Sequence record: MZ170040.1
Length of the DNA stretch: 64,000 bases
Strand: one strand, 5' to 3'
Source of the DNA: Escherichia phage vB_EcoM_FJ1
Part shown: piece after piece, positions 9,384-42,120 of the stretch
How the letters are laid out: every line of letters starts with the position of its first letter
How positions within the stretch are numbered: position 1 is the first letter of the stretch
Position numbers and translations under genes: made by a program
The notes under the pieces: model-generated
Seen by the model: the letters and a program-made list of their open reading frames with translations, nothing else
The model's database searches: none
Told to the model about the DNA's origin: nothing

Positions 9384-10343
9384 TCACTTCCACTGCATTT
9401 CACATGCTAACTGAATGAAAAGATAAGCTAGATGCAATTCAGTATTAGCTGCAATACCATGATACTGGTTATTTTCACCAACAATTTCATACATACGAAT
9501 AATACTTTGCGGAGTTACGCGTGTATAGATTTCTTCGGCAAGTTTACCCACGAACCACGAATAATCAGCTGCATATTTTGGTGCTAAAGCTCTGAGTTGT
9601 TTAACATCTTTATTTTTGAGAGACTCAAGAACATCATCAATAGCACCACGATCGTTAGTAACCAGTGATAAAATACCAGCATCCAAAACACCTTTAGATG
9701 AATAACTATCGAGCTCGCCAATAGTTTTACGAAAATCAGGAAAATTCTTTTTAACCAAAGCTGCTACAACTTTCATATCAGCTATAGCAATTCCTTCATG
9801 CTTACAGATTTCAGTCAATCGACGAATCATCTGCTTCATCATTTCAATTTTATCTTCATCGGTCGGTTGACCGAATGTAATAACTCGGCAGCGTGACTGA
9901 AGCGGTTTAATAATACCATCAATATTGTTAGCAGTAATAATAATACTACAGTTTGAACTATAAGCTTCCATAAATGAACGAAGATGTCGCTGAGACTCTG
10001 CTAGCCCTGAACGGTCAAATTCATCAATAACGATTACTTTTTGACGACCATCAAATGAAGCTGCACTGGCAAAATTAGTCAAAGGACCGCGAACGAAATC
10101 AATTTTACAGTCTGATCCATTTACAAACATCATATCAGCATTTACATCATGACACAATGCTTTTGCTACAGTTGTTTTACCTGTTCCTGGAGAAGGAGAA
10201 TGAAGAATAATATGTGGAATCTTACCTTTACTTGTAATAGATTTAAAGGTTTCTTTATCAAAGGCGGGAAGAATACATTCATCGATAGTAGATGGACGAT
10301 ATTTCTGTTCAAGAATGTGTTCTTTTTCATTTACGGTAATCAT
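9384..10343 (-). CDS. 44: clamp loader ATPase gp44 (AAA+)
   Basis: ATG at 10343 gives 319 aa; Walker A GTGKTT, Walker [12 protein letters not shown] motif. Confidence 0.9.
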
Positions 10344-10377
10344 AATTTCCTCATTCAAGTTTTAGTGTAAATTATAA

Positions 10378-39262: not shown

Positions 39263-39844
39263 CTAACCGAGTTTTTTAGTTAATTCATTCCAATGTTTTC
39301 TACACAAAGAAACATAAATTTCATCACCAATACAGATTTGATTACCTTCTTTAACTGGTGTTCCATCTTCCATTAATCGAGCTGTCATAATCGCTTTTTT
39401 ACCACAATGACAAACTGCCTTTAGTTCAATAAGTTTATCTGCAATCGCTAAAAGTTCTTTAGAACCTTCAAACAATTTTCCAGCGAAATCAGTCCTTAAT
39501 CCATAAGCCATAACAGGAACATTATATGTATCAACAATTCGGCTCAATTGATGCACCTGTTCAGTTTTTAAAAACTGAGCTTCATCTACAAATACGCAAT
39601 GAATATCTTTTTGTGCTTCAGCCCATTTATAGAACTCGAAAATATCCATATCATCTGTAATAATATTCGCTTCCTGCTTAATTCCAATGCGAGAAACGAC
39701 TTCACAGACAGAATCGCGAGTATCAATAGCAGGCTTAAGAACTAATACACTCATTCCACGTTCTTTATAATTATGTGCAGCAGTCAAAAGAGAAGCAGAT
39801 TTTCCAGCATTCATTGCTGCATAAGTAAAAATTAAACTCGCCAT
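39263..39844 (-). CDS. tk: thymidine kinase
   Basis: 193 aa; P-loop AAMNAGKS and C-terminal zinc motif CHCGK...CRKH; matches T4 Tk as recalled. Confidence 0.9.
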   Translation of the reverse strand: MASLIFTYAAMNAGKSASLLTAAHNYKERGMSVLVLKPAIDTRDSVCEVVSRIGIKQEANIITDDMDIFEFYKWAEAQKDIHCVFVDEAQFLKTEQVHQLSRIVDTYNVPVMAYGLRTDFAGKLFEGSKELLAIADKLIELKAVCHCGKKAIMTARLMEDGTPVKEGNQICIGDEIYVSLCRKHWNELTKKLG

Positions 39845-39853
39845 ATCACCTTC

Positions 39854-40045
39854 TTAAAGCGTATTCACATAAGCTATTAATTCATTTTCTTTCTTATCAA
39901 ACCGATCAGCAAATTCTTCCTGCTGTTCGGGAGATAGCGGGCCGTATTCATCATAAAAGGTGTTTGCTTCTGTATGCTCATCTAGAAGTTCATGGATAAG
40001 CTCAAACAATTTATCTTTTTGTTCTTTACTCAGACTCATAACCAT
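39854..40045 (-). CDS. hypothetical acidic protein
   Basis: 63-aa ORF. Confidence 0.4.
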   Translation of the reverse strand: MVMSLSKEQKDKLFELIHELLDEHTEANTFYDEYGPLSPEQQEEFADRFDKKENELIAYVNTL

Positions 40046-40263
40046 GTCACCTTTAAGCAGTATTCTTCTACATGCTGTTTACGACCTTTCTTATCAATAA
40101 AGGTATATTCAACGAATGTTCCAATGTAGTCTTTATCTACATCATGTGGACTATTAATTGGACATTTAGTACGGCAAATGCGTTCCCATTGACGAATAAT
40201 TACTGCCTTATTCTTTGGGTCATACGGATGTGGATAATGTATATTCATAATAACGGTTCCCAA
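40036..40263 (-). CDS. hypothetical protein
   Basis: 75-aa ORF. Confidence 0.4.
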   Translation of the reverse strand: MGTVIMNIHYPHPYDPKNKAVIIRQWERICRTKCPINSPHDVDKDYIGTFVEYTFIDKKGRKQHVEEYCLKVTWL

Positions 40264-40712
40264 TCAACAATCACAATTTCTAATTTAGAGGAATATGTAT
40301 CTAAAATCCCCTCAATAATATCCCAGTTCCCTTTACCTATGCCTGCTCCAATCCTAGGCATATAGATTGTAGGTTTAATCAGTTTATTTTCACCAAACTC
40401 ATTTAATTCTAACATACAATTCATTAAAGCGGAATACTCAAAATTTGGCCCTGGTTGAAATTGAGTATAAAGATTAAAGCAGTAAGCTTTATGAGTCCTA
40501 AAGTATTTTTCATAGACTGAGTAAGAACCGAGTTTAGTTACATCGCCCCATTCTGTCTGTAATTTATCAGCTTCCAAAATTTTAGGGAAAGCTTTGGTTA
40601 ATTGACCCGCTACGCCTGAACCCATAGTATGAAAACAATTGCATCCATGCGCAATATTTTTACCTTCAGCGAAAAGGGCGACAATATCGCCCTTGATATA
40701 TTTTACAATCAT
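40245..40712 (-). CDS. macro-domain protein (ADP-ribose binding/processing)
   Basis: 155 aa; macro-like motifs ...IAHGCNCFHTMGSGVAGQL... and ...RIGAGIGKGNWD... Confidence 0.55.
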   Translation of the reverse strand: MIVKYIKGDIVALFAEGKNIAHGCNCFHTMGSGVAGQLTKAFPKILEADKLQTEWGDVTKLGSYSVYEKYFRTHKAYCFNLYTQFQPGPNFEYSALMNCMLELNEFGENKLIKPTIYMPRIGAGIGKGNWDIIEGILDTYSSKLEIVIVDWEPLL

Positions 40713-41056
40713 CTAGTACTCAATCCTCGATTATAAGAATCTACCAAACGGTCAACCATTGAATGACAAGCGGCTTTATCTTTCTCCTCCGCAACTGAAC
40801 ATTCTAAGGTATTCCACTTTTTAGCATATCGTTTTAATAATGTATCGTTTTTGTATCTACTTGATTTATCTCTTTCTCCGTCTTTATATGCATATATTAA
40901 TTTCTGTGCAAATTCAGCTTGACATGCTTTATTTTTCCCACAATAATCTGCCGCAGTGCGGTTTACATATTCTCTAATTTCAGTATATGATGTATCTGCT
41001 AACGCAGAAGCAGAAAATGAAATTAATCCTATACATAAAACCAAAATTTTAGTCAT
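40709..41056 (-). CDS. secreted protein (position of T4 vs)
   Basis: 115 aa with signal peptide MTKILVLCIGLISFSASALA and four Cys. Confidence 0.45.
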   Translation of the reverse strand: MTKILVLCIGLISFSASALADTSYTEIREYVNRTAADYCGKNKACQAEFAQKLIYAYKDGERDKSSRYKNDTLLKRYAKKWNTLECSVAEEKDKAACHSMVDRLVDSYNRGLSTR

Positions 41057-41594
41057 TTACTATTTCCAAAAGTTTATTATTTTTAAGGTAATTAGCCTTT
41101 TCTAGGACTTCAGAAGCATATTTAGAACCAGCTTTAACATTCCATCCCGAATTATAAGAGGATATTGCCTTTCTTATATCACCCTTATGTATATTTAACC
41201 AATAAGAAAGTTCAATGTACGCCCAGGAAGCTGAATTGGACCGTTTATTCAACATTCTTTTTATTTCAGCATCGGTCATATTATAACCAAGTTCCTTAAC
41301 TCTCGCTCGCATAGTAGGCAAATAATTTTGGAACATTCCGTAGGCGTGATGCTTTGGTTTAGATTTTAAATTAACTCCGCCAGAGCTTTCTTGCCATAAA
41401 ATGGCTGCCATTATATGACCTAATCCGCTCTTGTGGATATTTTTGTGTGTTTTATATTTTCCATCCTTAGAAAATTGTTCCCCGAATTGATACGCGTAAC
41501 GCATGTTATCGAGTTGGACATTACTGAAAGTATGCTCGGAGCTATGTGCCATCATTGAAATGGCCAATAGACCAGCGAGTAGTGCTTTTCTCAT
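41049..41594 (-). CDS. secreted lytic-transglycosylase-like protein
   Basis: 181 aa; signal peptide MRKALLAGLLAISMMAHS; AILWQESSGG motif resembling the SLT catalytic E-S motif. Confidence 0.45.
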   Translation of the reverse strand: MRKALLAGLLAISMMAHSSEHTFSNVQLDNMRYAYQFGEQFSKDGKYKTHKNIHKSGLGHIMAAILWQESSGGVNLKSKPKHHAYGMFQNYLPTMRARVKELGYNMTDAEIKRMLNKRSNSASWAYIELSYWLNIHKGDIRKAISSYNSGWNVKAGSKYASEVLEKANYLKNNKLLEIVND

Positions 41595-41601
41595 GCTTAC
41601 C

Positions 41602-42063
41602 TCATTGAGTTTTAATTACTGCTTTAGAAGCCTTTCCTGGTAAACGACGACTGTTGATAATTGCCATCCTGCATTGAAGTGACGGGTTTTTGAACTTCTC
41701 ATTAGGCTTACAAACCGTAAATCCAAGCCAAAGATTTCCATCTGTAATTTCCAAACGCCCAGGACGATATTCAACCCCATCAATAAAATCCTCGTCAATG
41801 TCAGGACGCGGAGGCATACTCAGGAATTCATTAACTTCTAAAACATGGTCTTTTATTTTATGGAATAATTCAAAAACGTATGTCTCATCAATCTCCCGTT
41901 GAATTGCGCGATCAAGAAGATGCTGAGAATATTTTAGATGAAACGATGAGACTCCTGCTGCTTTTGATGCCTCACGAATCTCATTGTTAATTTGACGAAA
42001 CTCCGACTCAAAGTGACGACGAAGCTTATTTCGACGGATAAAAACTTCTGTATTGATAGTCAT
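41602..42063 (-). CDS. regB: RegB site-specific endoribonuclease
   Basis: 153 aa, same size as T4 RegB; directly downstream of an early promoter. Confidence 0.8.
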   Translation of the reverse strand: MTINTEVFIRRNKLRRHFESEFRQINNEIREASKAAGVSSFHLKYSQHLLDRAIQREIDETYVFELFHKIKDHVLEVNEFLSMPPRPDIDEDFIDGVEYRPGRLEITDGNLWLGFTVCKPNEKFKNPSLQCRMAIINSRRLPGKASKAVIKTQ

Positions 42064-42090: not shown

Positions 42091-42120
42091 ATTATACCAC
42101 AGTCAAGAGGAAAAGTAAAC
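42091..42120 (-). promoter_or_regulatory. early promoter (GTTTAC, 18 nt, TATAAT)
   Basis: GTTTAC at 42120-42115, TATAAT at 42096-42091. Confidence 0.6.

Follow-up and report, generated by a model that had tools for sequence, protein, structure and literature searches.

Phage T4 Tk.4 (AdfM) in Escherichia phage vB_EcoM_FJ1: a TARG1/ALC1-like macrodomain protein with a predicted lysine-free active site

Escherichia phage vB_EcoM_FJ1 (MZ170040.1) encodes a macrodomain protein that is 100% identical to phage T4 Tk.4 across all 155 residues. We analyzed a 64-kb stretch of this DNA (64,000 nucleotides, hereafter the window), for which a sequence-only reading had proposed a macro-domain protein that could be either a regulator or an anti-defense enzyme. 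The gene and its role against the DarTG2 toxin-antitoxin defense system are already known. In November 2025, a T4 transposon library was reported to have been grown on DarTG2-expressing E. coli, with tk.4 as the single significant HIDEN-SEQ hit (bioRxiv 10.1101/2025.11.20.689424). A clean tk.4 knockout made T4 sensitive to DarTG2, and the gene was renamed adfM, for anti-DarT factor, macrodomain. The authors of that preprint noticed that the protein resembles the DarG macrodomain of M. tuberculosis in structure. They describe enzymatic removal of ADP-ribose from DNA as something that 'seems likely', their support being genetic (bioRxiv 10.1101/2025.11.20.689424). Because the protein in the window is identical to T4 Tk.4, for which these genetics are published, the anti-defense idea is supported and has already been described. 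The best-supported biochemical reading of Tk.4 is that it hydrolyzes bonds at C1'' of ADP-ribose.

The other role that had been suggested, regulation of T4's own ADP-ribosylation by Alt, ModA and ModB, fared differently, and we found nothing in favor of it. Alt and the Mod enzymes modify arginine. Arginine-linked ADP-ribose is a substrate of enzymes of the ARH/DraG type, not of TARG1-class macrodomains. It is true that this phage family carries these transferases and that ADP-ribose-processing domains co-occur with them in T4-like phages (PMC9503650). However, tk.4 is dispensable on plain E. coli K-12 and becomes important only in the presence of DarTG2 (bioRxiv 10.1101/2025.11.20.689424). We consider it very unlikely that Tk.4 regulates or erases the Alt/ModA/ModB marks.

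The tk.4 (adfM) coding sequence lies at 40245..40712 on the minus strand. In the ORF listing it has an ATG start and encodes 155 amino acids, with a single macro domain, before the stop codon. As the sequence-only reading had stated, the ORF sits between tk and regB, and it shares the minus strand with both flanks. The two motifs quoted in that reading, GCNCFHTMGSGVAGQL and IGAGIGKGNWD, correspond to residues 23-38 and 121-131, respectively. The gene order along the minus strand is regB (41602..42063), vs.1 (41049..41594), vs (40709..41056), tk.4, tk.3 (40036..40248), one copy of a 63-aa tk.1/tk.2-like ORF (39854..40045) and tk (39263..39844). At both of its ends, tk.4 overlaps its neighbor by an ATGA. 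The stop codon of vs overlaps the start codon of tk.4 at 40709..40712, where the minus strand reads ...CTAGATGATT..., and the stop codon of tk.4 overlaps the start codon of tk.3 at 40245..40248, where it reads ...TTATGAATATA... These paired overlaps suggest translational coupling along the gene string.

A candidate sigma-70-like promoter lies 5' of regB at 42091..42119 on the minus strand (TTTACT, a 17 nt spacer and TATAAT, with TG; 10/12 consensus matches), and is a weak candidate for the start of the transcript that carries tk.4. A consensus scan found no minus-strand terminator-like site between regB and tk. The number of promoter-like sites in the scan equaled the shuffled-sequence expectation, so the transcription unit is tentative. 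Within the regB-vs.1-vs-tk.4-tk.3 string, tk.4 is probably made early, and would then be co-expressed early with regB and vs. Elsewhere in the window, a weak macro-like tblastn match at 9483..9773 (E 0.19) falls inside a gp44-like clamp-loader ORF, and we took it as a chance match.

The comparison with T4 tk.4 that had been proposed as a check identified the protein as Tk.4, which appears as ORF 60.5 in the 1980s T4 sequence X04567. Orthology is further indicated by the flanks, which are vs and tk.3 in both phages. The stretch from regB to tk has ~98% DNA identity to a T4 record, and the window comes from a T4 relative, not from T4 itself. For example, T4 has two tk.1/tk.2 paralogues, whereas the window has a single tk.1/tk.2-like gene. 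The two tk.4 genes differ at 7 nucleotides, all seven of them synonymous third-position changes, which indicates purifying selection on tk.4. Homologues are widespread: of 50,697 phage records, 2,750 gave a tblastn match, and these cover T-even phages as well as other phages of Escherichia, Klebsiella, Salmonella, Pseudomonas, Vibrio and Acinetobacter. Their GenBank labels include 'macro domain protein', 'phosphatase', 'Poa1p-like family protein' and 'hypothetical protein'.

Both sequence profiles and structure prediction point to a macro fold, and the profile matches go well beyond what chance would give. The HMM search that had been suggested gave a match between Tk.4 and the Pfam Macro family PF01661 at 27.7 bits (E 2.9e-6), above the gathering score of 22, covering Tk.4 residues 22-132 and profile positions 2-113 of 118. 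When we compared a profile of 64 homologues with solved macrodomains, the E values ranged from 4e-17 to 1e-11. The alignment of these 64 homologues was also the source of an AlphaFold2 model of Tk.4 (mean pLDDT 95.5, pTM 0.90), and the model has the three-layer alpha/beta/alpha macro fold that the sequence-only reading's macro-domain call implied. The best Foldseek matches in the PDB are the macrodomains of TARG1, Poa1p, BT1257 and DarG (E 1e-9 to 5e-7, TM 0.7-0.8). TARG1 and Poa1p head the list (E 1e-9 to 2e-9, TM 0.7-0.8), and the top 50 matches are macrodomains or designed enzymes on macrodomain scaffolds. The family profile matches these solved proteins by sequence too, BT1257 being the best sequence match among solved structures. 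The coronavirus (Mac1), alphavirus and MacroD-type domains are weaker Foldseek matches by 3-4 orders of magnitude. By its nearest neighbors in sequence and structure, Tk.4 belongs to the TARG1/ALC1-like class of macrodomains, not to the MacroD or PARG class. Of the top matches, TARG1, BT1257, DarG and SCO6735 have been placed in the ALC1-like class (PMC9411070); the sources consulted assign no class to Poa1p, which is a top match as well.

The class of the fold also bears on whether Tk.4 might deacetylate O-acetyl-ADP-ribose or regulate RNase III in the manner of YmdB. JGI labels several homologues 'O-acetyl-ADP-ribose deacetylase (regulator of RNase III)', and the PDB entry for TARG1 is itself named O-acetyl-ADP-ribose deacetylase 1. 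However, such names are transferred automatically, and MacroD/YmdB-type structures such as E. coli 1spv match the Tk.4 model with a Foldseek E value of 4e-5, compared with 1e-9 for the TARG1 class. There is also no sirtuin partner nearby. An activity of this kind is extremely improbable for Tk.4.

ADP-ribose binding by Tk.4 is predicted from two glycine-rich loops and a conserved Asp or Asn at position 9. We examined conservation in the alignment of 64 sequences, and also counted it over 119 family members. In the 64 sequences, G23, N25, G33, A35, D49, Y82, Q84, P119, I121, G122 and G124 are invariant. All of the coordinates that follow are on the minus strand. In K7-G8-D9 (40686..40694), D9 aligns with the Asp of the TARG1 'KGD' motif, and the region around it was aligned to 'KGDLF' of TARG1 and 'KGDAT' of BT1257. 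Of the 119 family members, 87 have D and 32 have N at this position, and we take D9 to be a putative adenine contact. In H22-G23-C24-N25-C26 (40635..40649), N25 corresponds to Asn22 of DarG, G23 to Val25 of SCO6735 and H22 to His23 of Poa1p. N25 and G23 are each conserved in 118/119 family members, and hhalign places N25 on N22 of two bona fide DarGs. N22 and K80 are the residues that have been named as the DarG active site (PMC13309987).

The first glycine-rich loop, M30-G31-S32-G33-V34-A35-G36 (40605..40625), aligns with 'MGAGIA' of TARG1 and 'MGKGIA' of DarG; its G33 and A35 are among the invariant residues. The GxG motif that it contains has been described as belonging to the ADP-ribose cleft (PMC9503650), and in Tk.4 this loop would bind the diphosphate and distal ribose. 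D49 (40566..40568) is a family-specific, near-invariant Asp, being D in 118/119 and E in 1/119 members. An Asp is also found at this position in phage Gary Adpp and in Poa1p, and is absent from BT1257 and TARG1. The second glycine-rich loop, P119-R-I-G-A-G-I-G-K-G-N-W130 (40323..40358), carries the invariant P119, I121, G122 and G124, and was aligned to 'PRIGCGLDRLQW' of TARG1 and to the Poa1p F152A chain. Within this loop, G126 stands at the position of the catalytic Asp125 of TARG1 and of Phe152 of Poa1p.

A further motif is N80-L81-Y82-T83-Q84 (40461..40475). Its Q84 is invariant in all 119 family members, and it occupies the position of the catalytic lysine, which is K80 in DarG and K84 in TARG1, and of Gln85 in SCO6735. 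We mapped Q84 with a HMMER profile alignment for TARG1 and with hhalign for the two DarGs and for a close SCO6735 homologue. As aligned, the active site of Tk.4 is therefore of the lysine-free type. The Lys84/Asp125 catalytic dyad of human TARG1 (OARD1) is Gln84/Gly126 in Tk.4.

A glutamine at the catalytic-lysine position is shared with SCO6735 of Streptomyces coelicolor (5e3b) and with BT1257 (2fg1), at ~23-27% identity to Tk.4. The stand-in for SCO6735 in our alignments was a close Streptomyces homologue (E 5e-67 to PDB 5e3b). By hhalign, the Gln of its 'ANMIGQHG', equivalent to SCO6735 Gln85, aligns with Q84, and in the HMMER profile alignment the BT1257 Gln does so too. SCO6735 Gln85 has been described at the DarG/TARG1 lysine position, and the Q85A variant loses all activity (PMC9411070). 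On thymidine-ADP-ribose made by DarT, SCO6735 is a faster hydrolase than DarG or TARG1, and it rescues cells from DarT. In the mechanism proposed for it, the Val25 backbone positions a water and Gln85 holds the distal ribose (PMC9411070). The fit of Tk.4 to the SCO6735/BT1257 subclass is imperfect. The defining trait of this subclass is a mobile loop with five more residues than the loop of DarG and TARG1 (PMC9411070), and the distance from Q84 to Y93 in Tk.4 is 9 residues, as in TARG1 and DarG, compared with 14 in SCO6735. The short loop after the Gln indicates that Tk.4 is without the long mobile loop of SCO6735 and BT1257.

We think it likely that the role of Tk.4 in T4 is to hydrolyze DarT2's ADP-ribose off thymidines in phage DNA, and that it does so with SCO6735-like chemistry. 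The DarT2 toxin ADP-ribosylates thymidines in single-stranded DNA. In the mechanism that we propose, Tk.4 would hold the ADP-ribose in the cleft formed by its two glycine-rich loops. Tk.4 would then hydrolyze the bond that joins C1'' of the distal ribose to N3 of thymine, which would free the ADP-ribose and restore replicable phage DNA. The alignment suggests that the chemistry is more likely to be SCO6735-like: Q84, as the equivalent of Gln85, may position the distal ribose, and backbone atoms beside the conserved N25 may hold the water that starts the reaction. Chemistry of the DarG/TARG1 lysine type is not expected, because the alignment puts the invariant Q84 in place of that lysine.

There are precedents for this substrate. 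The Gln-type SCO6735 cleaves DarT-made thymidine-ADP-ribose (PMC9411070), and the AdfM of a chimallivirus clears DarT2 marks from DNA (PMC13309987). Other observations run against reading Tk.4 as a DNA hydrolase. Its nearest characterized relative, Adpp, is a phosphatase (hhalign E 1e-32 between the Tk.4 family and Adpp), whereas the Tk.4 family matches DarG at E 1e-14. Tk.4 also lacks the longer, lysine-bearing loop of SCO6735 that has been linked to DNA binding (PMC9411070). A weaker observation of this kind concerns charge: the calculated pI of Tk.4 is 5.9, compared with 8.5-9.0 for DarG macrodomains. We dropped overall charge as a proxy for DNA binding because it was uninformative, the close SCO6735 homologue also being near neutral (pI 6.4).

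Tk.4 could in principle be an antitoxin mimic that neutralizes DarT2 chiefly through binding, instead of erasing its marks. Inhibition of DarT in vitro persists in catalytically dead forms of SCO6735, DarG and TARG1 and is strongest for SCO6735 (PMC9411070), and the knockout phenotype alone is therefore no proof of catalysis. In addition, AdfB of phage ICP1 counters DarT, likely via direct interaction (PMC11481870). However, the 155-aa Tk.4 has no counterpart of the C-terminal DarT-binding domain of DarG, and its active-site residues do not vary among phages that infect many different hosts, which fits an enzyme and not a binder of one toxin. We regard neutralization mainly through binding as unlikely.

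A further activity to be weighed against removal of DNA marks is dephosphorylation of ADP-ribose-1''-phosphate (ADPR-1''P), as carried out by Poa1p and Adpp. Adpp is a Poa1p-like macrodomain found in some phage NARP1 operons, described in a January 2026 preprint (bioRxiv 10.64898/2026.01.28.702374). When purified, the Adpp of Vibrio phage Gary turns ADPR-1''P into ADP-ribose, and this activity lets NARP1 rebuild NAD+ after cleavage by the aRES defense (bioRxiv 10.64898/2026.01.28.702374). In a tblastn of phages with a Vibrio megaplasmid macrodomain, phage Gary was not among the matches listed. The Gary Adpp sequence was taken from Table S1 of the preprint (bioRxiv 10.64898/2026.01.28.702374). 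Tk.4 and Gary Adpp are 35% identical (BLASTP E 2e-23), and the Tk.4 family profile matches Gary Adpp with an hhalign probability of 99.9%. Gary Adpp is the closest experimentally characterized relative of Tk.4.

The likeness extends to architecture and active site. Adpp is a single domain of ~155 aa that has the H-x-C-N-C, A-D, N-x-Y-x-Q and IG-x-G-x-x-GGDW motifs in common with Tk.4, and it too has Gln at position 84 as well as the Asp at position 49. The two proteins differ in two motifs, which read HGCNC and YTQ in Tk.4 but HQCNC and YGQ in Adpp, and in the loop after the Gln, which is 7 residues longer in Adpp. We considered whether HGCNC...YTQ marks a DNA-acting AdfM type and HQxNC...YGQ an Adpp-type phosphatase, and rejected this division on the counterexample of Acinetobacter phage phiAbaA1. 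This phage has a macrodomain with the exact HGCNC...YTQ motifs immediately 3' of Adps and Namat, and an NJ tree, crude and unbootstrapped, places this macrodomain within the Tk.4-like sequences.

On the phosphatase reading, the substrate would be ADPR-1''P from RES-domain NADases (aRES) or from RNA repair. The close match to Adpp with its equivalents of Gln84 and Asp49, the Tk.4-type macrodomain directly after Adps and Namat in phiAbaA1, and the retention of Poa1p His23 as H22 all argue for it. Several points argue against it. Adpp lies within an Adps-Namat (NARP1) operon, whereas tk.4 lies outside any such operon in the window; a tblastn search of the 64-kb window found neither Adps nor Namat, so that the ADP-ribose produced would have no NARP1 pathway to feed. 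The position of Poa1p Phe152 is Gly or Ala across the Tk.4 family. A phosphatase would also leave the DarTG2 phenotype unexplained; the reported role of Adpp is against aRES, whereas that of Tk.4 is against DarTG2. The residues altered in deposited mutants of yeast Poa1p give a mixed picture, His23 being H22, Ser30 being Thr29 and Phe152 being Gly126 in Tk.4. We view phosphatase activity, as either the main or an additional activity of Tk.4, as possible but doubtful. It is compatible with removal of ADP-ribose from DNA, and Tk.4 may be bifunctional, because each of the two reactions displaces a leaving group at C1'' of the distal ribose. Less likely than either activity are non-catalytic binding of the toxin, removal of the Alt/Mod marks and deacetylation of O-acetyl-ADP-ribose.

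These comparisons lead us to a tentative generalization about the family. Tk.4/AdfM and its many phage relatives might be general 'C1'' erasers', in which a lysine-free site of Gln, Asn and water would serve both thymidine-ADP-ribose and ADPR-1''P. If this is true, a general eraser would counter DarTG2 and, where the NARP1 pathway is present, RES-type NADases. The recently named T4 AdfM and Adpp would in that case be two views of a single enzyme family, described in two preprints. If one active site does both, the thousands of phage genes annotated 'phosphatase' or 'macro domain' would have to be reinterpreted together. The literature already describes tk.4 as one of the counter-defense genes that make T-even phages difficult to stop, and as a probable phage-borne eraser of marks made by a DNA-ADP-ribosylating toxin. 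What the present analysis adds is that Tk.4 belongs to a lysine-free branch with an invariant Gln at the catalytic position and is not a copy of DarG. It also adds that the nearest characterized relative is a phosphatase of a different anti-defense pathway, which links AdfM and Adpp.

Two further known systems close to Tk.4 are DarG and the AdfM of PhiKZ. DarG (PDB 5m3e, 5m3i) shares the fold class and the active-site Asn with Tk.4, at 21-22% identity. Both proteins counter the same toxin, and their substrate is predicted to be the same. To compare them, we used the NCBIfam model NF048014, which has a curated cut-off of 250 bits. Tk.4 scores 30.3 bits, below the cut-off, whereas two plasmid-borne reference DarGs score 477 and 392 bits; one of these has almost the same sequence as the M. 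tuberculosis DarG macrodomain of known structure. DarG has Lys80 where Tk.4 has Gln84, and it is a protein of 346-356 aa with a C-terminal DarT-binding domain, whereas Tk.4 is a single domain of 155 aa without it. No darT (DUF4433) lies beside tk.4, whose adjoining genes are vs and tk.3. By score threshold, catalytic lysine and domain architecture, Tk.4 classifies as a protein other than DarG. The phage orthologous group PHROG 335 ('phosphatase'), which Tk.4 matches at 1.3e-65, was rejected as a discriminator, since Adpp, PhiKZ gp104 and a bacterial DarG macrodomain also match it strongly.

Phages also carry macrodomains of the DarG-like, lysine-bearing type: a tblastn query with a DarG macrodomain matched 302 phage records, including PhiKZ-like and phiEco32-like phages, compared with 2,750 for Tk.4. 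Among the 40 matches listed and the 10 organism names tallied, out of these 302, there was no Tequatrovirus. The name AdfM has also been given to another protein, gp104 of the chimallivirus PhiKZ (Cell Rep 2026, PMC13309987). This protein has N23 and K78, and its removal of DarT2 marks from DNA was shown biochemically (PMC13309987). Its identity to the Tk.4 family is ~18% (hhalign E 9e-10). This hhalign alignment is off by one residue near the catalytic position, and the equivalence of K78 to DarG K80 is taken from the published work (PMC13309987). Like Tk.4 of T4, PhiKZ gp104 is a free-standing phage macrodomain that acts against DarTG2. In contrast to Tk.4, it resembles DarG in having a lysine, Lys78, belongs to a distinct lineage and undergoes import into the phage nucleus.

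The regB-tk stretch of the window is approximately 98% identical to that of T4 at the DNA level. T4 encodes tandem paralogues, tk.1 and tk.2, whereas the window has one tk.1/tk.2-like gene at the same place (39854..40045, minus strand; 63 aa, single copy). Judged by sequence, the phage is a close relative of T4 but not T4 itself, since a single gene stands where T4 has two. Many related phages carry approximately 370 bp of extra DNA in the tk.1/tk.2 stretch, unlike the window. The 181-aa product of vs.1 (41049..41594, minus strand) has a signal-peptide-like N-terminus. This gene is annotated as a lytic transglycosylase in one related phage record and as hypothetical in others.

A terminator-like hairpin, with an 8-bp stem followed by a T-rich tail, lies on the plus strand at 40674..40694, antisense to tk.4 and within its 5' end. 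Such sites are no more common in the window than shuffling predicts, and therefore this hairpin is probably a chance occurrence. In tblastn, a phage macrodomain aligned weakly with the gp44-like clamp-loader ORF (9384..10358, minus strand; 27% identity over 121 aa, E 0.19), which we likewise took as chance.

Tk.4-like macrodomains are also found in other genomes. In Acinetobacter phage phiAbaA1, an operon of Adps, a small ORF, Namat and a macrodomain gene lies at L006:949-4453. Its macrodomain is of the Tk.4 type (HGCNC...YTQ) and starts at the Namat stop codon. Upstream of the operon is a gene for RNA ligase 2, and downstream of it is one for a PseT-like kinase/phosphatase. A 938-kb Vibrio parahaemolyticus 'plasmid' encodes a 406-aa protein (L005:2308-3528) with a C-terminal Tk.4-like macrodomain that is 33% identical to Tk.4. 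Approximately 2 kb from it are genes encoding a Dam methylase and a protein of the NADAR family.

Asp49 of Tk.4 (D49; 40566..40568, minus strand) is present in 118 of 119 family members. Adpp, the ADP-ribose-1''-phosphate phosphatase of Vibrio phage Gary, and Poa1p share this Asp, whereas DarG, TARG1 and BT1257 lack it. D49 may be a family-specific residue with a catalytic or structural role.

Two phage proteins have been named AdfM: T4 Tk.4, on genetic evidence only (bioRxiv 10.1101/2025.11.20.689424), and gp104 of the chimallivirus PhiKZ, for which biochemistry was shown (PMC13309987). At the catalytic-lysine position, T4 Tk.4 is Gln-type whereas PhiKZ gp104 is Lys-type, and the two are only approximately 18% identical. 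The two AdfM proteins belong to unrelated lineages.
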